Positions 51,718 through 64,000 of a stretch of DNA of 64,000 nt are shown here, piece by piece. The translations under genes were made by a program, and so were the position numbers. Numbering within the stretch: position 1 is the stretch's first letter; each line of letters opens with the position of its first letter. Location: assembly GCA_023898465.1 (NCBI GenBank), contig CP060223.1, positions 160,001 through 224,000 on the forward strand, in the 5' to 3' direction. The notes under the pieces were generated by a model, which saw nothing but the letters and a program-made list of their open reading frames with translations, was not told where the DNA came from and did no database searches. Source of the DNA: Candidatus Nomurabacteria bacterium. Its GTDB lineage: Bacteria; Patescibacteriota; Patescibacteriia; HK-STAS-PATE-3.

Positions 51718-54700
51718 ATGGCATTTGTACAACGACATTCACGAGCACTATTTATCAGTATATTCGCAACACTTGTTATAGTGGCTGCTGGACTTCTTAT
51801 TGCAAAGGTTAGTTTTGCTGGGCTCGAGTGGGAGCCGCAAAAACCTCCAGAAGTATATCAGAATAACAGTAGCATCGACTTCTATAAAGTTGATTTCCAA
51901 CAAAACCCCAGCGATAATAAATACTATGGTTGGGTGGTAGGTGAGGACTTAAGCGGTAAACAATCAAGCCTCCTTTACTTTAATGGCGCTTTTTGGAAAT
52001 CAATTACCGACGACGGTTTGGGTGCGGGGTCGACATCGGACCTCTTTGATGTTTCCGCTGTTTGGAATTCAGATATTGATCAGTATCTTGTTTGGGCAGT
52101 AGGGGAAAATCAAGCGCTCTGGTATTTAACTGACAGCGAGACTGTGTGTAATAGTGAAGCTATCCCATGTCCTGATAGTCCAGCTGGAGCTGTGACTTTA
52201 AATTCGGTTGAAGGTGCTTGGTATAGCGGAGATGATAAAGTTGCCTTTTTTGTAGGTGATAACGGGCACATTTATCATGCAGTGGCTGATGATTACCAAA
52301 GCGCATTCGCCTACACCGCAGCATTTGCTACGAGCGGGACCATCCGCGATATTGATTCTTTTGACGCTGCACATACTTGGGCAGTATCAAGTGATGGCAA
52401 GATATATTTTAATAGCGATTATCTGACAAACTCGTGGGTGCAACAAGCCTCTTTCCCAGGCATTGATTTTACAGGAGTGTCAGCGGCAGATGCCAGCCAC
52501 GTATGGGCTTCGGCAATTAACGGCACAAAAGGTCAAATTTATTTTTACGACGGGTCCACCTGGTCGCTCCAATTCACTACAGTGCTTGATATTCCGCTTC
52601 ATGATGTGAGTGCATTTTATAATCCTACTTTATCTATTTATAATGCCTTTGCGGTTGGTGATATTGATTCCTCTACAGGCAACGGAGGTGTTTATCAATA
52701 TAATGGTACAATTTGGGAACGGCAGGATTCAAATAATAATGGTGAAGTATTACGCGGCATTTCTGCTGCCAGCCTTATTGAGATACGAGCCGTTGGTGCG
52801 AACACCACACTCTTAACCAGCTCACCGGGAAATATATTTGGTTGGATTTGGCTAGGATCAAGCACAAGTAATGGAAGTGGCGATGCGCTGGGATGGGGAA
52901 GCGGAAGCTGCGCTAATCTTGATAGTTGTGAAAGTGCTGGCTTTACTTACGGCGTAAACATCCGCCGCAGTGGCACCAGTCAAGGTGCTTTGTCTGGTTA
53001 CTTTTGGCTAGGGAATGCTGATCCGGATGCTTATATTCCAAATGACTGTGACACCGATCCAGGCGTCGAAGCTTGTCAATCTAATTCGAGCATTAGCTGC
53101 ACTACTGATTTTGAATGTCGTTGCGCTATTAATTCAGCAGCTTGTTTTTCAACTGGTTGGATGTCGTTTAACAAAAAAGGCTCGGATGGTGTGACTGATG
53201 AGGCTGGCACACCTCCAGCTGCACCGTACAATGATGGTGCGCAAAACTATATTGCTCGATTTGATGCAAAGACGGGTAAGGTAACTGGCTGGGCTCGTTT
53301 ACTTTCCTTATACGAAGATCCAAGCACTGGTGGCTGGATTCGTTTGCGAGGGAATGCAGTTACTCCGAATGTAGGTGACTTACCAGTCCGAGACTGTAAA
53401 AATTGTGGCAAATTCTGCAGTCTCGACACTACGTATAAGTGTACAGTTGACGCTGACTGTAATGTAGACGCAGACGGTGATGGAACAGATGAAAACTACG
53501 GCCCGTGTAATGTGAGTGTTTGTAAGATTTGTAATGCTTTAAATGATGAAACAATCGTTTCTGCAAACATGTGCTCAAATACCGGCGGCACCTCATGTAC
53601 GCGACGTTGTGAGCTTAACAACAGTATTACCTGTACCGATGATGCAGATTGTATAGGATTTGGCTCATGTGTGAATGAGACTTTTTGTGATTCTTGTGTG
53701 ACCTATGACCAATATGGTGTAGCGATTGATGACGCAACTGGTAAGATTACCGGCTATGCTTGGAGTGGCGCGTCTACTACATATGGTCAACTTGGCTGGA
53801 TTGATTTTAATCGAGCAAACTATTATAGCCAGGCTTGGTTACAGACCCAATTTGGGAATATCTACGCTCAAGCTGATATCGGTAGCGTTGGTACGCCAGC
53901 TGCTCCAGAGGGTAAATGTAATGCGACATACGTGATTAGTGCAGCTGGTACCATCACTAACTTCTGTTCGCGCTACGAAGAAATCGATCCAACCGCCCCG
54001 CCAGGGGACTACACCACTCGCCCCTTCATCCAGCAAAACTACGATGAAATTTATTATCCAACCGAGGCAAATAACTATACGAACGTCCTAGGAAAATTGG
54101 ATCCAGATGCTCTGGTGCAGGATGTGGGCGCTGGAAAAAATAAATATGGCGATGAAATCATTACGGTAAACAGCGATGCTGATTTACTTGACCTTGGCTT
54201 GTGTGATGCTGACGGAGTAACGCTTGATGGCAAGGTATATCATGTGGTTGGAAATCTCAGTATCGGTGTCTGTAATCCTGGTAGCGGTGATGTTACTGAA
54301 TTGATTATTAAGAATTCTTCACTCGCCAGTGGGTCAGGGACAATAGTGGTTGATGGTAATCTCACCATTGATATGAATATAAGCTACGAACAAAGTTCAA
54401 TCTCTAATATTAGAGATTTGGCCTCCCTGGGTGTGATGGTGAAGAAAAATATGATAGTGACTGGTGATGTAGATTCAATCGTCGGCTCCTATATCGTCTT
54501 TGGAACCGATGAGACAGAAGCTAATAAATTTAGTGGAATTAAGATTGAAAACTCCTTAATCGAACGCTCCTTTAGTGCGCAAGGTCTCATGATCGCCCGA
54601 GGCTTCAAATTCGAGCGCACATATCGTGGCACCTTAATCGATCCACAACCAGCTGAGCAGGTGGTATACGATGGACGGGTGATTGCAAATACGCCGCCAG

Positions 54701-54756
54701 GATTCCGTGATTTTGCGAAAGTCTTACCAGTTATTCGAGAAACCATACCTTTTTAA
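51718..54756 (+). CDS. Large membrane-anchored secreted Cys-rich protein (1012 aa) with an N-terminal EPQ motif.
   Basis: An N-terminal TM is followed by GLEWEPQKPPE. The middle is Cys-rich (CKNCGKFCSLDTTYKCTVDADCNVDADGDG...) and the C-terminus is beta-helix-like. It is the last gene of the paralog operon. Confidence 0.75.
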   Translation: MAFVQRHSRALFISIFATLVIVAAGLLIAKVSFAGLEWEPQKPPEVYQNNSSIDFYKVDFQQNPSDNKYYGWVVGEDLSGKQSSLLYFNGAFWKSITDDGLGAGSTSDLFDVSAVWNSDIDQYLVWAVGENQALWYLTDSETVCNSEAIPCPDSPAGAVTLNSVEGAWYSGDDKVAFFVGDNGHIYHAVADDYQSAFAYTAAFATSGTIRDIDSFDAAHTWAVSSDGKIYFNSDYLTNSWVQQASFPGIDFTGVSAADASHVWASAINGTKGQIYFYDGSTWSLQFTTVLDIPLHDVSAFYNPTLSIYNAFAVGDIDSSTGNGGVYQYNGTIWERQDSNNNGEVLRGISAASLIEIRAVGANTTLLTSSPGNIFGWIWLGSSTSNGSGDALGWGSGSCANLDSCESAGFTYGVNIRRSGTSQGALSGYFWLGNADPDAYIPNDCDTDPGVEACQSNSSISCTTDFECRCAINSAACFSTGWMSFNKKGSDGVTDEAGTPPAAPYNDGAQNYIARFDAKTGKVTGWARLLSLYEDPSTGGWIRLRGNAVTPNVGDLPVRDCKNCGKFCSLDTTYKCTVDADCNVDADGDGTDENYGPCNVSVCKICNALNDETIVSANMCSNTGGTSCTRRCELNNSITCTDDADCIGFGSCVNETFCDSCVTYDQYGVAIDDATGKITGYAWSGASTTYGQLGWIDFNRANYYSQAWLQTQFGNIYAQADIGSVGTPAAPEGKCNATYVISAAGTITNFCSRYEEIDPTAPPGDYTTRPFIQQNYDEIYYPTEANNYTNVLGKLDPDALVQDVGAGKNKYGDEIITVNSDADLLDLGLCDADGVTLDGKVYHVVGNLSIGVCNPGSGDVTELIIKNSSLASGSGTIVVDGNLTIDMNISYEQSSISNIRDLASLGVMVKKNMIVTGDVDSIVGSYIVFGTDETEANKFSGIKIENSLIERSFSAQGLMIARGFKFERTYRGTLIDPQPAEQVVYDGRVIANTPPGFRDFAKVLPVIRETIPF

Positions 54757-54762
54757 GGTTTC

Positions 54763-54791
54763 TTGCGACAGAGTAAGAAAAATGCTATAAT
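54763..54791 (+). promoter_or_regulatory. Near-consensus sigma70 promoter upstream of pilM.
   Basis: TTGCGA (54763-54768) is followed by a 17-nt spacer and TATAAT (54786-54791), about 45 nt upstream of the pilM ATG. Confidence 0.55.
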
Positions 54792-54838
54792 TGATCGAGT
54801 TCATACACGTTTTTTCTAAATGATTAGGACGCTGGGGG

Positions 54839-55927
54839 ATGGGTTTATTTAACAAAAAAGAAAGCTATCTCGGGATTGATATCGGCACTTCTAGTATTAA
54901 AGTGTCTGAATTCAGAAACGAAGAAGGTCGTCCGCGCTTGTTAAGTTATGGCTTTGTCGAGCAACCAAGCGAGGTTTTAAAAAGCGATTCACCCGAAGCA
55001 ATCCAGCAAGTGGTGACTACCTTGTTAGGTGTGTTTAAAAAGGGCCATATGCAAAGCCGCAAAGTGGTTTCGGCTCTGCCTAGCTACGCAGTTTTCACAT
55101 CGATTTTGAGCTTGCCAGTAATGCCGAAGAAGGATTTATACTCGGCAATTCGCTGGGAGGCAAAAAAAATCGTCCCAATGTCCCTCGATGAAATGGTGCT
55201 AGACTGGCGCTTACTCCATGACCCAGAAGAGGCGACTGATGAAAAAGGTAAAAAGAGCAAAAAGGATCAAATAAGCAGTGGAGGTCCTAAAAATACCCGT
55301 GTGCTCATTACGGCAGCTCCAAAAAACTTAGTTAAACGTTACATTGATATATTTAAACTGGCTGAGCTCGAAATCGTCAGCCTAGAAACCGAGTCATTTG
55401 CCCTTGTTCGTTCACTTCTTGGACGAGATAATTCCACAGTGATGGTGGTGGATATCGGGGCAATTGCCACGGAAATAAGCGTTATACTCGATGGTATACC
55501 TTTTCTCAATCGAAGTATCGACGTAGGGGGAGAAACTATTACGAAATCAATAGCCAATAGTCTCAATATTGATGCAGAACGCGCTGAGCAAATTAAGCGC
55601 GACTTTGGCGTTATGAGTGGGCCGAGCACGAGTCAGATTCCTCGGGTTATTGAATTTGTCATGCAGAATATCGTGAATGAGATTCGCTATATTTTATCGA
55701 TGTATCAAAATCAGGGCGAAAAGCCAATTGAAAAAATTGTGTTGTCTGGTGGATCAGCCTTCCTGCCCAATTTGCCTAGCTATCTCGAGCAGATGATTAA
55801 GCTCAAATGCTATATTGGAGATCCGTGGGCTCGAGTAGTCTACCCAGTAGAATTAAAGCCAGTGCTAGATGAGATTGGACCACGCTTTGCCGTGGCAAAT
55901 GGTCTAGCCATGCGTGAAATTGTGTAA
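54839..55927 (+). CDS. pilM: Type IV pilus assembly protein PilM (actin-like ATPase fold).
   Basis: The N-terminus LGIDIGTSSIKVSEF is typical of PilM. An acetate/sugar-kinase fold signature is present (VVDIGAIATEISV...LSGGSA). Confidence 0.85.
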   Translation: MGLFNKKESYLGIDIGTSSIKVSEFRNEEGRPRLLSYGFVEQPSEVLKSDSPEAIQQVVTTLLGVFKKGHMQSRKVVSALPSYAVFTSILSLPVMPKKDLYSAIRWEAKKIVPMSLDEMVLDWRLLHDPEEATDEKGKKSKKDQISSGGPKNTRVLITAAPKNLVKRYIDIFKLAELEIVSLETESFALVRSLLGRDNSTVMVVDIGAIATEISVILDGIPFLNRSIDVGGETITKSIANSLNIDAERAEQIKRDFGVMSGPSTSQIPRVIEFVMQNIVNEIRYILSMYQNQGEKPIEKIVLSGGSAFLPNLPSYLEQMIKLKCYIGDPWARVVYPVELKPVLDEIGPRFAVANGLAMREIV

Positions 55928-55930
55928 TCT

Positions 55931-57244
55931 ATGGATATTAATCTCCTAAAAGATACTCAGCGATCTGAGGACCAGAAGAAAAAACAGTTGAACTCAACTG
56001 GTAATCAGGAGATGACAAATCCAGACAAGCTCCCGCCCGCTAAACCGGAGCCAAAGCTGCCTTCACGCTTTAGCACCTGGCTACAATCCCTCCGTGGTAA
56101 AAAAAATCCTAAAGAAATGCAAGAGGAAGAAATTATTCAAGAACCAATAAAAGCCCCAAAAAGTCCAACATTTGATGAGAGCGCTCGACCCAAGACCGAG
56201 GATATTTTTGCTGACCTCGACACACCCTCTTCTCAGCCTGAGTCAAATCCAGAGCCAATCATGTCAGATGAAGAGTCTTTACAAACCTTTACGCCGCCAG
56301 AGCCTAAGAAAAAGCAAGCAATGCCCAATGCGGTGAAACCCCCACGCTTCACTCAGAAGATGGAAGAAATTAAAATGACGCCTCCGCCAGAGTTACCCAA
56401 GAAAAAGGTAAAGCAGCCAAAAATTTCCTCATCGCGCGACCAATCCTTTTTGGTAAACTTGCTGCCAACTGAGTTTCAGCGATCAATTGACCCCCGTTCG
56501 AAATTAATCAGCCTGGGAATTACCGTTTTAATCACCGCCTTAGTGATTGGAGCTGCCTATGGAGCGTTGACGCTCTACCGCACCTCTATTTTAGAGCAGA
56601 TTCAGAGTCTACGTACGGAGCGCTCGGTTGTAGAAAGTACTATTAGCGATTTGCGCCCGAGTCAGCGTGAGGCGATTACCACAAAAGAGCGGACTGAATT
56701 GGTAAAGACCTTACTTGACCAGCACGTGTATTGGACAAGGTTTTTTGAAAAGCTTGAGGAATATACCATTGATGACGTGTATTACATTGGTGCCTTTAAT
56801 GGAAGTCTGGGTGGTCAAATTACGCTTTCGGCAGTTGGCACTTCCTTTAGTGCTCCGGCGCGCCAGTTAATTGCTTTTCAACAAGCCAGCGACTTTGTTT
56901 CCAGCGTGCGAATTACCTCAGCCCGTTCGGCTGATTCAGCCACTGGAACCACCGTCGGCAGCACCGGCACTGAGCAGATTTCTTTTTCGGTAACACTAAG
57001 CCTACTGCCTGACCTTTTCTATTATGATGCTTCTACCTTCCCCTTAGAGCGAATCGGCAATGTAACAACACCTTTGCCCGGTGACACTTCGCTCTTACCT
57101 GGTGCAACCGGAGTACCGGACTTAGGGACATCCACCAATACCAATACTTCAGGAGCTACAAATACGAACACCTCGACAAATACTAATTCAAGTACGAATA
57201 CCAACACCAGCACGACGCTTAATAGCAATATCTCGAACCCATGA
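55931..57244 (+). CDS. pilN: PilN-like pilus assembly protein with an unusually long Pro/Lys/Glu-rich cytoplasmic N-terminal extension and a T/N-rich C-terminal tail.
   Basis: The PilN motif (FLVNLLPTEF) lies immediately before a single TM (LISLGITVLITALVIGAAYGALTLY). A periplasmic domain follows. The C-terminus is low-complexity TNTNTS. The N-terminus also begins MDINLLK. Confidence 0.7.
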   Translation: MDINLLKDTQRSEDQKKKQLNSTGNQEMTNPDKLPPAKPEPKLPSRFSTWLQSLRGKKNPKEMQEEEIIQEPIKAPKSPTFDESARPKTEDIFADLDTPSSQPESNPEPIMSDEESLQTFTPPEPKKKQAMPNAVKPPRFTQKMEEIKMTPPPELPKKKVKQPKISSSRDQSFLVNLLPTEFQRSIDPRSKLISLGITVLITALVIGAAYGALTLYRTSILEQIQSLRTERSVVESTISDLRPSQREAITTKERTELVKTLLDQHVYWTRFFEKLEEYTIDDVYYIGAFNGSLGGQITLSAVGTSFSAPARQLIAFQQASDFVSSVRITSARSADSATGTTVGSTGTEQISFSVTLSLLPDLFYYDASTFPLERIGNVTTPLPGDTSLLPGATGVPDLGTSTNTNTSGATNTNTSTNTNSSTNTNTSTTLNSNISNP

Positions 57245-57909
57245 AAATCTTCGGCAAAAGCTTCACTGAATTCTTAATTGAGCAATACCGCTATGTATTA
57301 GTGGCGGTTGCGCTTATACTTGCTTTGGTCGGCTATCTGGTGTTTATTGGACCGGAATTGCAAGAAGTCCGTCGTTTCGGTACAGCTGACTTAAAAGATG
57401 AGAAATCGAAATTAGAAGATCGGAAAACCTATTTGACTCGTTTACAGGGCATGCTTGATGCCTATAGTACGCTGAATCAAAATAGTTTAAGCGAGTTAGA
57501 GGGGGTGCTACCGACCTATGAAGATATCCCTGACCTCTTCATTATTGTAGAGGACTTGGCCAAGCAGAGTGGCTTATCACTCAGTTCTGTTTCTATTAAT
57601 CCGGCGAATTTAGAATCCGAATCAAGCGCAGCCGGTGCAAGTACAACATCGCTGAGTCAGTTGGCTAAATCAAAGAACTTAAAAGCCTTTGACATCTCAG
57701 TGACGGCTATTAATGGTACTTCATACGAAGATTTCAAAGACTTTATTACGAATATCGAAAATAGCAACCGCCTGTTTGATGTGCGATCTATGCAGTTTAC
57801 GCCGGAGCCGCGTCAGTCAGCTGACCGTACGAGTGAGACCTCAGCTGCTACGACTCCGTACTCAATCAACTTGCGCACTTATTATATTGACGGTGAGGAG
57901 GCTTCCTAA
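57241..57909 (+). CDS. pilO: PilO-like pilus assembly protein.
   Basis: A 222-aa ORF with an N-terminal TM (YVLVAVALILALVGYLVFIG), a coiled-coil, and a periplasmic domain. It occupies the PilO position in the pilMNO order. Confidence 0.6.
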   Translation: MKIFGKSFTEFLIEQYRYVLVAVALILALVGYLVFIGPELQEVRRFGTADLKDEKSKLEDRKTYLTRLQGMLDAYSTLNQNSLSELEGVLPTYEDIPDLFIIVEDLAKQSGLSLSSVSINPANLESESSAAGASTTSLSQLAKSKNLKAFDISVTAINGTSYEDFKDFITNIENSNRLFDVRSMQFTPEPRQSADRTSETSAATTPYSINLRTYYIDGEEAS

Positions 57910-57912
57910 GCT

Positions 57913-58206
57913 ATGGCACTGGTACAGAAAAGCAATAAAAAGAGCGTCACTATTTTACTCAGCGTCCTGGTCGGTGTCACGGTGATTGGTTTACTTGTGT
58001 ATTTCCTGGTTATCGCTCCACCGGATGTTGATCCAAATGTGAATACCTCCAATAATATTGTGCAGAGAGATTTGCCAATCTACACTACCTTTGGCGAAGA
58101 CTTGTTTGATGATCCGCGTTTCCGCGCCCTCGTGCCCTATGGTGATCTGCCGGTTGATCTAGGTGACGTGGGGAGGACTAACCCATTTGAGAAGCCATCC
58201 CCATGA
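57913..58206 (+). CDS. Small single-TM protein of the pilus operon.
   Basis: A 97-aa ORF with an N-terminal TM (VTILLSVLVGVTVIGLLVYFLVIA). It is translationally coupled, overlapping pilB by 4 nt. Confidence 0.5.
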   Translation: MALVQKSNKKSVTILLSVLVGVTVIGLLVYFLVIAPPDVDPNVNTSNNIVQRDLPIYTTFGEDLFDDPRFRALVPYGDLPVDLGDVGRTNPFEKPSP

Positions 58207-59984
58207 GCGCTGCCCGACGTAGCAGCTCGGTTCAGGACGATTCCGTCTTAGGCATGCCTAGGGCGATTATTAATGACTTGGAAGAACGGGGATTAATCAG
58301 CGAGGAAACTCTAGCTCAATATGTAGAGCAGGCTAAAGCAAAGAAGTTTACCCTCGAACGGATTCTCTTAGATACTCGAGCAGTGAGGGAAGAGGATATC
58401 ACCAAAGCAAAGGGCAAGCTTTTTAACGTGCCCTATGTTGAGCTATTTGGAAAAATAGTACGCGCTGAGGTGCTGAATCTAATACCACAGGAGTTAGCGC
58501 AAAACTACAGCATGGTAGCCTTTAGCCGAGATGCTGATGAGCTATCTGTGGCAATGGTGAATCCATCTGACTTTAAGGCGCTAGAAGCAATTGAATTCAT
58601 TGCTCGTAAAAATCGCCTCAAATTAAAGTATTTCATTGCCTCGGAAACAGGCGTGAAGCACATATTGCAGCAATACGAGAGTCTTTCCGCTGAAGTTGAA
58701 GAAGCGCTCAAGGATACAGAGTCAGAAGGCGACGCAGAGGTAAAGTTAAACATTGCCGAGCCGGGCATGGAGGAGGTAATCCGCCAAGCTCCGGTTTCAA
58801 AGATGGTTTCGGTTATTATGCGACACGCAGTAGAGGGTAAAGCTTCTGACGTGCACATCGAGCCAGTCGGCAATGAATCTCGCATTCGCTATCGTATTGA
58901 TGGTGTGCTGCATACCTCGCTTGTGTTGCCAAAGCATGTCCATGCCTCAATCGTTGCGCGCATTAAGGTGCTGTCTAATTTGAAGATTGATGAAACGCGT
59001 GTGCCGCAAGATGGTCGCTTCCGCATGAATATTGACGGGAGAGATGTTGACTATCGTGTTTCTACACTGCCGCTCGTCAACCAAGAAAAAGTCGTGATGC
59101 GTATTCTCGACACTAGTGGCGCCATGACTGATTTGCAGGATTTGGGTTTCGACGGGCGCAATTACGAAATTATTCAGGAGAACATTGATAAATCCCACGG
59201 AATGATTTTAGTCACTGGTCCGACCGGTTCTGGTAAGTCAACCACCCTCTATGCCATTATGAGTCGCTTGAATGAGGAATCTGTGAATATTGTGACGCTG
59301 GAAGATCCGGTTGAATATTATATGAAAGGAGTAAACCAGTCACAAATTAATCCTGACGTTGGACTTACCTTTGCAGCAGGTTTGCGCTCCATCTTACGTC
59401 AGGACCCTGACATCGTCATGGTTGGAGAAATTCGGGATACTGAAACTGCAGATTTGGGTGTGCACGCCTCATTGACTGGTCACGTGGTACTCTCAACGCT
59501 TCACACCAACGACGCTTTTGGAGCAATACCGCGTTTTATTGACATGAAGATCGAACCATTCTTACTTGCTTCATCGCTCAATGTTGTCATTGCCCAACGC
59601 CTGGTCCGTCGTATTTGTCAGCATTGTACGACCACGATGGAGATACCGGCCGCCTTGCAAAAAGAGGTACAAGAGGGCTTAAAAGAATTAAAGCCTGAGC
59701 AGTTACCAAAAGGTATTAGTCTAAATTCGCCTAAGTTTTATCGAGGTAAAGGTTGTGTACGCTGTGAAAATACCGGCTATAAAGGCCGTGTTGCTATTGC
59801 TGAGGTGCTAGATATGACTGAAAATTTGAAGAAGGTGATCACTGGTGAACAGGCGAGAATTTTAGAGAACATTCACGAAGAATTTAATAGACAGGGCCTA
59901 TTAACCATGAAGCAGGATGGCTTACTGAAGGCTCTGCGCGGCTTAACCACCATTGAAGAGGTGTGGGACGCTACCCGAGAATAA
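58203..59984 (+). CDS. pilB: Type IV pilus assembly ATPase PilB (GspE family), catalytically intact.
   Basis: Walker A is LVTGPTGSGKSTT. The Asp box is EDPVEY. Walker B is IVMVGEIRDTETA. The His box is GHVVLSTLHTNDA. The tetracysteine motif is CQHC...CVRC. It also has an N-terminal GSPII-type domain. Confidence 0.9.
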   Translation: MSAARRSSSVQDDSVLGMPRAIINDLEERGLISEETLAQYVEQAKAKKFTLERILLDTRAVREEDITKAKGKLFNVPYVELFGKIVRAEVLNLIPQELAQNYSMVAFSRDADELSVAMVNPSDFKALEAIEFIARKNRLKLKYFIASETGVKHILQQYESLSAEVEEALKDTESEGDAEVKLNIAEPGMEEVIRQAPVSKMVSVIMRHAVEGKASDVHIEPVGNESRIRYRIDGVLHTSLVLPKHVHASIVARIKVLSNLKIDETRVPQDGRFRMNIDGRDVDYRVSTLPLVNQEKVVMRILDTSGAMTDLQDLGFDGRNYEIIQENIDKSHGMILVTGPTGSGKSTTLYAIMSRLNEESVNIVTLEDPVEYYMKGVNQSQINPDVGLTFAAGLRSILRQDPDIVMVGEIRDTETADLGVHASLTGHVVLSTLHTNDAFGAIPRFIDMKIEPFLLASSLNVVIAQRLVRRICQHCTTTMEIPAALQKEVQEGLKELKPEQLPKGISLNSPKFYRGKGCVRCENTGYKGRVAIAEVLDMTENLKKVITGEQARILENIHEEFNRQGLLTMKQDGLLKALRGLTTIEEVWDATRE

Positions 59985-60009
59985 TTTTGCCAATAATTTT
60001 ATTACGCCT

Positions 60010-60420
60010 ATGACAAAGGCAACAAGTAGTGCAAAAGAGCAGTCAAAAAAGAAGAATCCCCAAGTGCTTATTGTGGAGGATGATACCTTCCTGTCTGGAA
60101 TGTACGTCACCAAACTTGAGCTAGAGGGGATTGATGTAGAGTTGGCCAGTGATGGTCAGCAGGCTATTAATGTCGTGCAGAAGAGGAGACCAGATGTCAT
60201 CCTGCTCGATGTGGTGATGCCTAAGATGTCGGGATTCGATGTCTTGACTTGGTTAAAAAAGACCAAAGAGACAAAAGATATCCCGGTTATCTTATTAACC
60301 AATTTGGGAGAGAAAGAAGACGTACAAAAAGGCTTGAAGCTTGGCGCTGTCGATTATCTCATCAAAGCACATTTCTTGCCATCAGAAGTGGTAGAAAAGA
60401 TTAAGCGTATTGTTCGCTAG
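60010..60420 (+). CDS. Stand-alone response-regulator receiver domain (CheY/PilH-like).
   Basis: The acidic pocket is LIVEDD. The phospho-acceptor lies in ILLDVVMP. A conserved Thr is in LLT and a Lys in YLIKA. There is no output domain. The start was chosen at MTKATSS to avoid overlap with pilB. Confidence 0.8.
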   Translation: MTKATSSAKEQSKKKNPQVLIVEDDTFLSGMYVTKLELEGIDVELASDGQQAINVVQKRRPDVILLDVVMPKMSGFDVLTWLKKTKETKDIPVILLTNLGEKEDVQKGLKLGAVDYLIKAHFLPSEVVEKIKRIVR

Positions 60421-60421
60421 C

Positions 60422-61498
60422 ATGCCCTCATCCGACACTATAGCTATTCAGAAAATTTTGGCCTCGGCGGCTGATTATGGAGCCTCTGATATTCACATTG
60501 TGCCAGGTAATCCACCGACCCTGCGCGTGGACGGTAAATTAGTGCCTTTAGAGAATGAAGTAGTGGTCACGCCGGACCTGATGACCGCTTTAGAAGAACT
60601 TTTACTTACCCCTGAGCAACGTGAGCGTTTCCATGCTGACAAGGAGCTTGTCACAGCAACCAGCTTAGAGAATCGCCAACGTTTTAAAGCCAGCTTTTTT
60701 TACCAAAAGGGTTTACCAGCCAGTTCGCTCCGTTTAATTGCCAGCCGACCAAAGTCTGTCCGAGATTTAGGCTTACCGGATAATATTGAGGACCTCGCCC
60801 GTTTGTCATCTGGACTCGTGGTTATTTCAGGTCCCTACGGATCAGGACGGTCTTCAACGGTGTCCGCCTTACTCCAAACAATTAATCAGCAGCGCGCCGC
60901 TCATGTGGTTACGATTGAGTGGCCGATTGAGCATCTGTTTGTCAACGAGAAGAGTATGATAGAGCAGCGTGAAGTAGGTCGTGACACACAATCGTTTACC
61001 AAGGCGATTGAAACGGCAACTCGAGAAGATGTGGATGTGGTGATGGTGTCTGAGATGGAGGATCCAAATGTGGTGCAGTCAGTGTTGCAAATTGCCTCGA
61101 CTGATCGTTTAGTCGTGAGTATGTTATTAGCCGATTCGGTGCCGCAAACGGTAGAAAAAATCCTTGACGCATATCCGGCTGAGGAACAGGAGCAGGCTCG
61201 ACGTATTTTTGCCGAACATCTGGGTGGTATCGTGTGTCAGCGTCTCTTACCGCGTGTGGGCGGCGGGCGCATTGTGGTAGCAGAAATCCTGCTGCCCACT
61301 GATCCGGTGCGCGCCCTTATTCGCGATGGGCAGATTGGTCAGCTCAAGACTATGCTACAAAGCTCCCAAGAGGAGGGATTAGTTTCTTTTGATCGTTATT
61401 TAGCCGCTTTAGTACGTAATGGTGAAATATTAGTTGATGATGCATTAGCCAATGCAAATGATCGGGCCGAGCTCTCAGCCGCCCTACGAGGACGATAA
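60422..61498 (+). CDS. pilT: PilT-family retraction ATPase homolog with degenerate catalytic motifs.
   Basis: It aligns along its full length with PilT (GASDIHIVPGNPPTLRVDG, NQREVGRDTQSF, AEEQEQ, GGGRIVVAEILL). However, Walker A is GPYGSGRSS (Lys replaced by Arg), the Asp box is EWPIEH instead of EDPIEF, and the His box is DRLVVSMLLAD instead of GHLVFGTLHT. The ATG at 60422 follows a TTG at 60410. Confidence 0.8.
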   Translation: MPSSDTIAIQKILASAADYGASDIHIVPGNPPTLRVDGKLVPLENEVVVTPDLMTALEELLLTPEQRERFHADKELVTATSLENRQRFKASFFYQKGLPASSLRLIASRPKSVRDLGLPDNIEDLARLSSGLVVISGPYGSGRSSTVSALLQTINQQRAAHVVTIEWPIEHLFVNEKSMIEQREVGRDTQSFTKAIETATREDVDVVMVSEMEDPNVVQSVLQIASTDRLVVSMLLADSVPQTVEKILDAYPAEEQEQARRIFAEHLGGIVCQRLLPRVGGGRIVVAEILLPTDPVRALIRDGQIGQLKTMLQSSQEEGLVSFDRYLAALVRNGEILVDDALANANDRAELSAALRGR

Positions 61499-61504
61499 TT
61501 ACTT

Positions 61505-62713
61505 ATGCCAAATTTTGAATATACTGCACGAGATAGTCAGGGAAATACCAGTACAGGTATTGTTGAAGCGCCAACTGAGAGCATAGCGCAGGATGTTTTG
61601 CGTGAACGCGGTTTGATAGTGACCGGTATTAGCGAGCGTCAGCGCAAAGCGCTTTTTCAAACCTCGCTGAACATATTTAATCGCGTGCCTCGTCGTGATG
61701 TCACTATTTTTTCACGGCAGCTGGCAGTGATGATTTCGGCCACGGTACCGATTGTGCAGGCTTTGCGTATCCTCGTGAAGCAGACAGAAAACGTAGCTTT
61801 TAAGATTATTATCTCAGAGGTTGCTGATGAGGTTGACGGTGGATCAAAGCTTTCCGCCACTTTAGGGAAGTATCCTCATGTGTTCAATGATTTCTTTGTG
61901 CACATGATTCGATCTGGTGAAACCACGGGTAAGTTGGATGAAACGCTCAACTATTTAGCTGATCAGCAGGAAAAAGACTACGATTTGATCTCTAAGATCA
62001 AAGGCTCGATGACCTATCCGGTCTTTATTCTGGGTGCTTTGGTGGCTGTCGGTATCCTTATGATGATTTTTGTGATTCCACAGCTGACCGATATCCTGAC
62101 AGCTGGTGGGCAAGAGCTGCCGATTATGACGCGAGCTTTAATCGCTACCTCGGCATTTTTGCAGACAAAGTGGTGGGTGTTGCTTATTGTGATTGCGCTT
62201 TTGTACGCGGCATATCGCTTTGTGGAGCGGTCTGAGCAAGGTCAAGACGTGATTGATCGCTTGAAGCTGCACTTCCCAATTTTTGGACAAATTTTTCAGC
62301 GTATTTACCTTGTCCGTTTCGCGCGCAGCTTATCAACCTTAATCTCCAGCGGCGTGCCAATTACTCGCTCACTCGAGATTGTGGCTGATGTGATTGATAA
62401 CCGTCTCTATCGTAAGTTAACCAAAGAGACTATTGAAGCAATTGAGGGAGGTAAATCTATCTCCTATGTCTTTGCGCAAAATAAAGATATCCCTCCTATG
62501 TTGACGCAGATGATGAGCATTGGTGAATCAACTGGTAAGCTTGATTTCATTTTAGAAAAGCTGGCAAATTTCTACAGTCGTGAGCTAGAAAACAACGTAG
62601 CAAACCTGGTTAGCCTGATCGAACCTTTGATTCTGGTGGTTATGGGTGTGGCAGTTGCCTTCCTCGTTATCGCTATTCTCTTGCCGATGTATAATTTGTC
62701 ATCAGCCATTTAG
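61505..62713 (+). CDS. pilC: Type IV pilus platform protein PilC (GspF family).
   Basis: A 402-aa ORF with two GspF-type repeats and three TM helices. The N-terminus is PNFEYTARDSQGNTSTGIVEA. Confidence 0.85.
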   Translation: MPNFEYTARDSQGNTSTGIVEAPTESIAQDVLRERGLIVTGISERQRKALFQTSLNIFNRVPRRDVTIFSRQLAVMISATVPIVQALRILVKQTENVAFKIIISEVADEVDGGSKLSATLGKYPHVFNDFFVHMIRSGETTGKLDETLNYLADQQEKDYDLISKIKGSMTYPVFILGALVAVGILMMIFVIPQLTDILTAGGQELPIMTRALIATSAFLQTKWWVLLIVIALLYAAYRFVERSEQGQDVIDRLKLHFPIFGQIFQRIYLVRFARSLSTLISSGVPITRSLEIVADVIDNRLYRKLTKETIEAIEGGKSISYVFAQNKDIPPMLTQMMSIGESTGKLDFILEKLANFYSRELENNVANLVSLIEPLILVVMGVAVAFLVIAILLPMYNLSSAI

Positions 62714-62892
62714 CTAAAGTTAGCCGAAAAAGTAGGGGATTTGTTGTCGAATGTGGAAAAGTAAGAACACTTGTTCGGTATTTGCAAAAATGGTACACTA
62801 CAACTGTACAAATTGCGTACACTAAAAGCCTCGGCATATTTCACGCGTGAAGTATGTACAACGGCAAAATGAAAGGGGGTGAGACAGAAAGA

Positions 62893-63459
62893 ATGAAAAA
62901 AGGATTCACACTTATTGAGCTCTTGGTCGTGATCGCGATCATCGGTATTTTGTCTGCAATTGGGCTCGTCTCACTAAACGGTGCACGTGAAAAGGCCCGT
63001 GACGCCCAAGCCAAGTCTGACCTTGGTCAGATGCGCACTGCGTTGACCTTGTTTGCTGATGATAACGGTGGAAGCTTTGTTGGAGTGCAGGTAGCAGGCG
63101 CAAGTAATACGCCTGATTGTTCTGGTGACACAAACGACGCCGGATCGACCGCAGCTGGTAATGATTAAGTGTGGGATAGCAACGACGGTTACCGATTATC
63201 TCTCAACCTATCTAAATTCACCACGAGCTTGGTTACTGGCGCGGACGCGTGCGAAGGTCGTTATGGTTATGTGGCAAATGAATTCAGCTGCTACCGTAAA
63301 CGACGCTGATGATTATGTGTTGTTCTATAGACCGAAACAGGTGATGGACAAAACTACTACAAGCTTAGCGCTGACGGGCAGTCGGTTGATTATTCAGATA
63401 ATGAAACAGGTGTTCCTACCTGTCCAAACACGGGTGCGGCTTGTACGCTAAATCCGTAA
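62893..63459 (+). pseudogene. Type IV pilin gene that has an intact prepilin N-terminus but is interrupted by in-frame stops and compensating frameshifts (pseudogene or silent-cassette-like).
   Basis: The class III signal is MKKGFTLIELLVVIAIIGILSAIGL. An in-frame TAA lies at 63166. The same frame then continues with pilin-like sequence (VWDSNDGYRLSL...GADACEGRYGYVANEFSC), matching GIWDGTGG...YGYVSNG of the downstream pilin. Further in-frame TGA, TGA and TAG lie at 63307-63330. The +1 frame carries DDYVLFY, similar to SDYGLYY in the neighbouring pilin. The original frame ends ...TGDGQNYYKLSADGQSVDYSDNETGVPTCPNTGAACTLNP* at 63459, just before a terminator. Confidence 0.65.
62959..63035 (+). repeat. 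77-nt segment perfectly identical to 63619..63695 (the conserved pilin N-terminal region).
   Basis: A direct nucleotide comparison of the two pilin genes shows the flanking codons differ at synonymous sites while these 77 nt are identical. Confidence 0.9.
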
Positions 63460-63470
63460 GGTTGATAAAC

Positions 63471-63500
63471 AAAAAAGGGGTGCTAGTTGACCCCTTTTTT
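63471..63500 (+). terminator. Rho-independent terminator (bidirectional hairpin).
   Basis: AAAAAAGGGG, loop tgctagttga, CCCCTTTTTT. This is a 10-bp perfect stem with A- and T-tracts, located 12 nt after the pilin-frame stop. Confidence 0.8.
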
Positions 63501-63552
63501 GTTTATTGTGCTATACTTACCGCATTGAAGCTTAAGTTAAAGGGGGTAGTTA

Positions 63553-64000
63553 ATGAAAAAAGGATTCACACTTATTGAGCTCCTAGTTGTTATCGCGATT
63601 ATTGGAGTACTTTCTGCTATTGGGCTCGTCTCACTAAACGGTGCACGTGAAAAGGCCCGTGACGCCCAAGCCAAGTCTGACCTTGGTCAGATGCGTACAG
63701 CATTAACTTTATTTGCTGACGATAGCGGTGGATATTATCCAGATGTACAAAGTGATAGTCCTGGTGTGCCAGATGAGAGCGCTCCCAATTTAACTGAGGG
63801 CGGTATTTGGGATGGCACCGGTGGGTCAATAATTCCAAGTTATCTATCAGCAGAACTTGAATCCGGCTCAAGTACTCCTTACGGTTATGTATCGAATGGA
63901 CTAGATGCTACTCCAAATGTATCTAGCGATTATGGGCTCTATTACTTGTTAGAATCTGGCGATGGAGCGCGCTACTACGTGCTTACTGCCAATGGAACAG
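63553..64000 (+). CDS. Type IV pilin (major pilin candidate), 3' end beyond the window.
   Basis: MKKGFTLIELLVVIAIIGVLSAIGLVSLNGAREKARDAQAKSDLGQMRTALTLFADD... with GGGGGT as a Shine-Dalgarno 6 nt upstream. The ORF is open to the end of the window. Confidence 0.85.
   Translation, partial: MKKGFTLIELLVVIAIIGVLSAIGLVSLNGAREKARDAQAKSDLGQMRTALTLFADDSGGYYPDVQSDSPGVPDESAPNLTEGGIWDGTGGSIIPSYLSAELESGSSTPYGYVSNGLDATPNVSSDYGLYYLLESGDGARYYVLTANGT

Follow-up and report, generated by a model that had tools for sequence, protein, structure and literature searches.

The tfpQ and tfpI genes of Moraxella form an invertible pilin segment with inverted copies and a site-specific invertase, Piv, and recombination within the 5′ segment common to the two genes exchanges their variable 3′ parts. 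The locus described here is similar in that a 5′ coding segment is common to two pilin genes, but the tandem copies run in the same direction at a distance of 660 nt, with no gene for a recombinase next to them. An invertible switch of the Piv type was discarded on these grounds, since the copies are direct and no ORFs other than the pilins were found between pilC and the end of the window.

In Neisseria gonorrhoeae and N. meningitidis, RecA-type conversion moves short stretches of sequence between the pilin copies of the pilE–pilS system (PMC2188579, PMC3547852). As in Neisseria, the present locus holds several pilin genes, and one or more of them cannot be expressed, though the plan differs in three respects. 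The silent copies of Neisseria lack a promoter and the N-terminal region, whereas our first pilin gene (pilin 1) keeps its leader box, its ATG and 91 intact codons. Conversion in Neisseria alters the variable C-terminal part, whereas here it falls on the invariant helix codons 23–47 and changes no residue. Finally, the process in Neisseria is started from upstream of pilE by a G4 structure together with an sRNA, whereas a search for the G-quadruplex motif (G3+N1–7, four times) found none on either strand of the whole window, and a G-quadruplex initiator in the window was accordingly rejected. Antigenic variation of the Neisseria type, with its 5′-truncated cassettes, G4 element and conversion of a variable region, is thus not what this locus displays.

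Saccharibacteria are known to deploy several pilins, in work concerned with pilin function (PMC11623550), and the present locus resembles those of Saccharibacteria and other Patescibacteria in that an ultrasmall episymbiotic bacterium carries several pilin paralogs beside pilB, pilT and pilC. It also shares its main traits with gene conversion in bacterial multigene families (tuf, rrn operons, surface-protein paralogs), namely a short identical tract within diverged paralogs, mosaic incongruence, and a tract placed where conservation is highest and homology suffices. From these there is no difference in principle, only in setting, which is a tandem pilin array in the reduced genome of a Patescibacterium. 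No description of pilin gene conversion in Patescibacteria was found in the literature searched.

The window, by which we mean the whole 64-kb stretch of DNA analysed, comes from a metagenome-assembled genome of an uncultured member of the Patescibacteria (Nomurabacteria). Its 3′ end holds a type IV pilus cluster followed by two tandem prepilin genes, with the following features.

54839–57909: PilM and PilO, further upstream of the pilB-like gene (Pfam matches)
58203–59984, plus strand: pilB-like ATPase (Pfam T2SSE and MshEN)
59953–60420, plus strand: response regulator (Pfam Response_reg)
60410–61498, plus strand: pilT-like ATPase (Pfam T2SSE)
61505–62713, plus strand: pilC platform protein (Pfam T2SSF)
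58203–62713, plus strand: the whole upstream pilus machinery block (pilB, regulator, pilT, pilC), a gene order also present in the related locus L003
62867–62880, plus strand: box AAATGAAAGGGGGT with the leader and ribosome-binding site of pilin 1, upstream of the gene (repeat family D2)
62892–62922, plus strand: first identical block, pilin 1 copy, 31 nt (an A plus codons 1–10), equal to 63552–63582
62893–63459, plus strand: pilin 1, a probable pseudogene, ATG at 62893
62959–63035, plus strand: 77-nt tract, pilin 1 copy, codons 23–47 plus 2 nt
63465–63506: perfect 17-bp hairpin with an 8-nt loop, between pilin 1 and pilin 2 (inverted repeat I1)
63534–63547: counterpart box AAGTTAAAGGGGGT upstream of pilin 2
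63553–64000, plus strand: pilin 2, cut at the window end, ATG at 63553, with the N_methyl motif
63619–63695, plus strand: 77-nt tract, pilin 2 copy, an exact match to 62959–63035

Both genes have the character of type IV prepilins. The cleavage/methylation motif KKGFTLIELLVVIAIIG is found, with KKGFTLIEL in both pilins, so that a class III signal peptide with the G/FTLIE motif is followed by a hydrophobic helix, and PF07963 (N_methyl) matches the N-terminal ORF of pilin 1 at E = 8e-9 and pilin 2 at E = 4e-8. Genes for pilus assembly (pilB, pilT, pilC, pilM/O) lie alongside at 54839–62713. The full pilin 2 protein has 173 aa (P0001, USN53719.1), and the part encoded in the window matches it at 100%; its reading frame is intact and it carries an invariant C-terminal cysteine pair, C163 and C170. 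The leader box is conserved in L001, L002 and L003, the closest relatives at hand; L001, a JGI contig, contains pilC together with three pilin genes. The hairpin at 63465–63506 is bordered by A- and T-runs and looks like a bidirectional intrinsic terminator, although it is absent from the list given by a consensus terminator scan; because of this resemblance, pilin 2 appears to be transcribed as a unit of its own.

Three further observations concern the surroundings of the pilins. The stand-alone response-regulator gene has pilB on one side, whose end it overlaps, and pilT on the other, an arrangement shared with L003. Two antisense ORFs with TTG starts, at 62841–63014 (minus strand, 57 aa) and 63537–63674 (minus strand, 45 aa), have nearly the same sequence, each lying opposite a pilin N-terminal region; most likely they arise simply because the coding sequence is repeated. 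Directly upstream of the pilin 1 leader, 62845–62866 (GTGAAGTATGTACA...) resembles positions 75–104 of the contig L085 (GTGAAGTAAGCTAATTACA...), which are the 3′ end and spacer after pilin 2; the unit duplicated in the array may thus reach about 45 nt upstream of the start codon.

The sequence-only reading had drawn attention to 77 consecutive nucleotides shared by the two genes, and the identity of 62959–63035 with 63619–63695 is exact. Both copies begin at base 1 of codon 23 and encode IGLVSLNGAREKARDAQAKSDLGQM plus two bases of R. A search of the window for the 77-mer returned only these two copies with up to three mismatches allowed, and shuffled sequence gave none. The surrounding synonymous differences that it had described are likewise present. 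Codons 1–10 are all identical between pilin 1 and pilin 2; 9 of the 12 codons from 11 to 22 then differ (8 synonymously, plus I19V), none of the 25 codons from 23 to 47 does, and all six of codons 48–53 differ, every one of them synonymously. Its statement that the genes diverge completely after codon 55 was too strong, in that the proteins can still be aligned there despite strong divergence.

A run of this length is significant in a codon-level permutation (p = 6e-4). The GENECONV-style test that had also been suggested, a permutation limited to sites polymorphic among six close sequences, gave p = 5e-5 for pilin 1 against pilin 2, which favours conversion, and no significant result for the other 14 pairs. 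The tract is not explicable by chance or codon bias: based on the codon usage of the window's long ORFs, the probability that 25 independently drawn codons all agree is about 1e-12, which led us to reject codon bias as the cause, and the tract contains rare codons (e.g., GGG at 0.11 and CTA at 0.09). Agreement in the flanks, by contrast, is at the level of chance (6 of 22 codons, against 7.3 expected), so the flanks are synonymously saturated, and pilin 1 and pilin 2 must be old paralogs. Saturated flanks around a perfect core cannot fit a very recent duplication, which the sequence-only reading had offered as the alternative and which we rejected for this reason.

Comparison with L001 and L003 shows that tract and flanks tell different stories. 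Across codons 11–22, pilin 1 differs from L001/L003 at 8–9 sites and from pilin 2 at 12, with pilin 2 at 13–14 differences from L001/L003. In the tract, however, pilin 1 and pilin 2 show no differences, and each shows 15–17 against the relatives. The downstream flank, codons 48–58, supports the incongruence only in part on these counts: pilin 1 differs from L001/L003 at 9–10 positions and pilin 2 at 12–14, while pilin 1 and pilin 2 differ at 8, which puts pilin 1 slightly nearer to pilin 2. Such incongruence between flank and tract is the classic signature of non-allelic gene conversion, and the tract is, in addition, longer than the surrounding divergence would lead one to expect. We therefore consider, with good confidence, that the 77-nt identity was left by non-allelic gene conversion that took place recently between old tandem pilin paralogs, as the sequence-only reading had envisaged in the first of its two proposals. 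Divergence from the relatives is about 0.6 per codon in the tract, 0.76 in the pilin 1 flanks and 1.17 in the pilin 2 flanks; the tract thus lies nearer to the pilin 1 flanks, which weakly suggests pilin 2 as the recipient and a transfer from a sequence of the pilin-1/pilin-3 type into pilin 2.

The second proposal was that the nucleotides themselves are under constraint, for example through an RNA structure or a recombination hotspot; we extended it to regulatory targets, so that the 77-mer would have to remain identical in both genes for any of these roles. The encoded peptide IGLVSLNGAREKARDAQAKSDLGQMR is highly conserved among the pilins of Patescibacteria, so protein-level constraint is strong and general. 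L001, L002 and L003 encode the same peptide with other codons, and across 29 pilins with the same or nearly the same peptide (27 from other genomes, at loci anchored on PilC, plus the two window copies) hardly any third codon position in the tract is invariant. When the 26-residue peptide was back-translated degenerately, no match turned up in genome_contigs, and in metagenome_contigs only the contig of L001 matched. Folding of the 77-mer, another of the checks proposed, gives a minimum free energy of −25.7 kcal/mol and a predicted 7-bp hairpin (UCUGACC/GGUCAGA), and the codons AAG TCT GAC and CAG ATG are common to the five closest relatives, both of which speak for a nucleotide-level role. 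The fold is nevertheless no better than that of shuffled controls (z-scores of only −1.6 sense and −1.0 antisense), the hairpin is broken in L003 and gone in more distant relatives, an Rfam search of the 77-mer at a permissive threshold found no match, and, besides the missing G4 motif, sub-words of the tract are no more frequent in the rest of the window than expected.

Given free variation at third positions, an ordinary fold and no Rfam family, we reject nucleotide-level constraint on the tract, to which the comparative sequences leave very little credence. A nucleotide function specific to this lineage is possible, being compatible with the comparative data taken alone. The sequence-only reading had held that normal synonymous variation in related genomes would reduce the identity to a recent duplication; that variation is indeed what the relatives show, but it excludes constraint and not conversion. 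An uptake-sequence-like or dispersed repeat was discarded in view of the expected rate of sub-words. A diversity-generating retroelement was likewise discarded, as the repeat is exact, N-terminal and free of adenine-specific differences, and the window has no bAvd-like gene between pilC and the pilins. Proteins of the bAvd type are accessory proteins of diversity-generating retroelements, and in two relatives a small gene with a Pfam 23S_rRNA_IVP / bAvd match adjoins pilC and the pilins (L001:675–1037 and L002:1347–1727).

The sequence-only reading had counted two pilin genes, of which the first proved not to be intact, with a premature stop and apparent frameshifts. Codons 1–91 of pilin 1, prepilin motif included, are intact up to an in-frame TAA at 63166–63168, and in tblastn the homologs align to pilin 1 from start to stop, albeit across in-frame stops. 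A profile HMM of the pilin family, built from 25 homologs, matches pilin 1 in frame 0 over profile positions 4–81 (62893–63165), in the +1 frame after the TAA over positions 94–140 (about 63179–63346), and again in frame 0 over positions 137–173 (63331–63456). A weak frame-0 match, RYGYVAN, lies mid-way and suggests two pairs of compensating frameshifts. On this sequence evidence, the TAA and at least two, probably four, frameshifts would crowd into about 165 nt of the part encoding the globular domain, and pilin 1 is probably a pseudogene. There is no protein accession for it between PilC (USN53718.1) and pilin 2 (USN53719.1), and an exact-protein look-up of three possible pilin 1 ORFs returned no record. 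It is possible that the lesions are consensus errors in a strain-variable region. Should they be genuine, a decayed gene that retains a flawless 5′ half is what one would expect if functional neighbours had overwritten it repeatedly.

The array appears to extend beyond the window. A third pilin, P0002 (USN53720.1, 184 aa), carries the accession that follows that of pilin 2, and on this basis we take its gene to adjoin pilin 2 just past base 64000, from about 64112 onward. Its first 60 residues are those of pilin 1. This brings the array to three copies or more, whose globular domains differ greatly. A homology search with P0002 found no close relative that could serve as a DNA stand-in for pilin 3.

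Evidence on the DNA of this region comes from a second protein in the 90% cluster of pilin 2, P0121, which derives from an ENA assembly. Its contig, L085 (ERZ27309238, k141_753943, 700 nt, MEGAHIT k = 141), matches window 62867–63035, from the pilin 1 leader to the end of the tract, at its positions 105–273 (169 nt, no difference), and matches pilin 2 over the 382 nt that begin with the tract and run to the end of the window (no difference). It thus joins a pilin-1-type leader and codons 1–22 to the body of pilin 2 exactly across the 77-nt tract, a junction that also speaks for conversion. The ends of L085 repeat 141 nt, which makes it a closed loop with a unit of 559 nt, equal to the 522-nt pilin 2 gene plus a 37-nt spacer before the next pilin-1-type leader, and also to the spacing predicted for the tracts of pilin 2 and pilin 3. 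L085 could equally be a real recombinant (an excised circle or a duplication junction) or an assembly loop, formed by de Bruijn merging of repeats at small k and carried forward. Under either reading a pilin-1-type leader follows pilin 2, and the leader of pilin 3 appears to be that of pilin 1, after the 37-nt spacer. If the loop arose because the tracts of pilin 2 and pilin 3 were merged or recombined, the tract occurs a third time just past the window.

The loop bears on whether the identity itself could be an artefact of assembly or consensus, that is, whether the paralogs truly differ inside the tract and were rendered the same when the graph was simplified or when mis-mapped reads were used in polishing, the frameshifts of pilin 1 being errors of the same origin. 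The source is a metagenome-assembled genome, the frame errors cluster in pilin 1, and L085 demonstrates that assemblers merge paths at this repeat; moreover, 77 is a common default k-mer size of assemblers and equals the length of the tract. Set against this, L085 comes from another assembly, made at k = 141, and reproduces the tract with a pilin-1-type left flank and a pilin-2-type right flank without a single difference. Over 54010–60038, the window is matched at 100% identity by same-strain contigs from three sequencing runs, and the rest of the window contains long uninterrupted ORFs. De Bruijn assemblers, furthermore, break or mis-join at repeats and rarely make exact identity amid dense differences. 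We therefore regard an artefact as unlikely.

Taken at face value, L085 also bears on programmed pilin variation, in which the tract would serve as a crossover handle for swapping variable 3′ cassettes behind different 5′ ends, with the silent pilin 1 among the cassettes and with swaps common enough to be appreciable in the population. In favour, the array holds three or more copies that differ greatly in their globular domains, one of them silent, and L085 has the structure expected from recombination between the tracts of pilin 2 and pilin 3, with the 559-nt unit as predicted. A low-k assembly loop accounts for L085 equally well, however; the converted patch lies in the invariant part and changes no amino acid; and there is neither a G4/sRNA element nor a recombinase gene beside the array, whose copies are direct. 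Programmed variation is, in our judgement, highly improbable. Scarcely more probable is a pilin cassette-shuffling system of an episymbiotic Patescibacterium with the tract as its crossover handle, in which recombination between tract copies would excise, duplicate or re-pair the globular cassettes, silent pilin 1 included. Were this true, the population would be a mixture of pilin architectures with L085 as a real product, and the outcome would be host-range or phage-evasion variation on a plan unlike that of Neisseria pilE/pilS.

Gene conversion, our preferred reading, finds parallels in other pilin arrays, although the 77-nt tract itself is known from one genome only. The 31-nt block of codons 1–10 has one difference in each of L001 and L003 and five in L002. 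In L001 the pilA/pilB pair after pilC is 96% identical over the first 174 nt, its few differences being clustered elsewhere than in the window pair, and the globular parts have about 40% protein identity. Among the other tandem pairs, with 75–95% N-terminal protein identity, most have synonymous differences spread evenly along the sequence, and their exact runs measure 9–23 nt; longer patches of 32–42 nt occur in L013, L040, L051 and L070, and the two L046 copies do not differ at any of the 128 nt that remain up to the end of the locus. These loci indicate that patchy homogenisation of 5′ ends recurs and is not tied to one sequence. L003, which has a single pilin, carries a Y1_Tnp (IS200/IS605-type) transposase gene directly after it (L003:10701–11156), where the window has further pilin copies.

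As to mechanism, we infer a process of the RecA-dependent kind. The DNA coding for the conserved N-terminal α-helix, common to all copies, would supply the homology for RecA-type strand exchange, and mismatch repair of the resulting heteroduplex would copy a short patch of one pilin into another. The 31-nt block over codons 1–10 may be a second or earlier patch, or a product of the same event with discontinuous repair. Repeated events would keep the 5′ ends of the array alike while the 3′ parts, which code for the exposed globular domain, remain very different; the intact 5′ half of the decayed pilin 1 could be upheld in the same way, through overwriting from its functional neighbours. The outcome would be concerted evolution of the 5′ ends without change to the protein.

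Read as gene conversion, the event is an ordinary non-allelic conversion in a bacterial multigene family, a known process in a little-studied group. This reading accounts for an odd-looking pattern in the sequence and leaves no need to suppose that a signal in RNA or DNA is hidden there. The case also flags a pilin pseudogene with a pristine 5′ half, and it carries a warning, since the repeat can make assemblers yield loop or chimeric contigs, through which chimeric pilins, such as P0121, enter protein databases. For the family, the implication is that in the pilin arrays of Patescibacteria the 5′ ends evolve in concert while the exposed domains diverge, which matters for pilin trees used to address host specificity or gene transfer.
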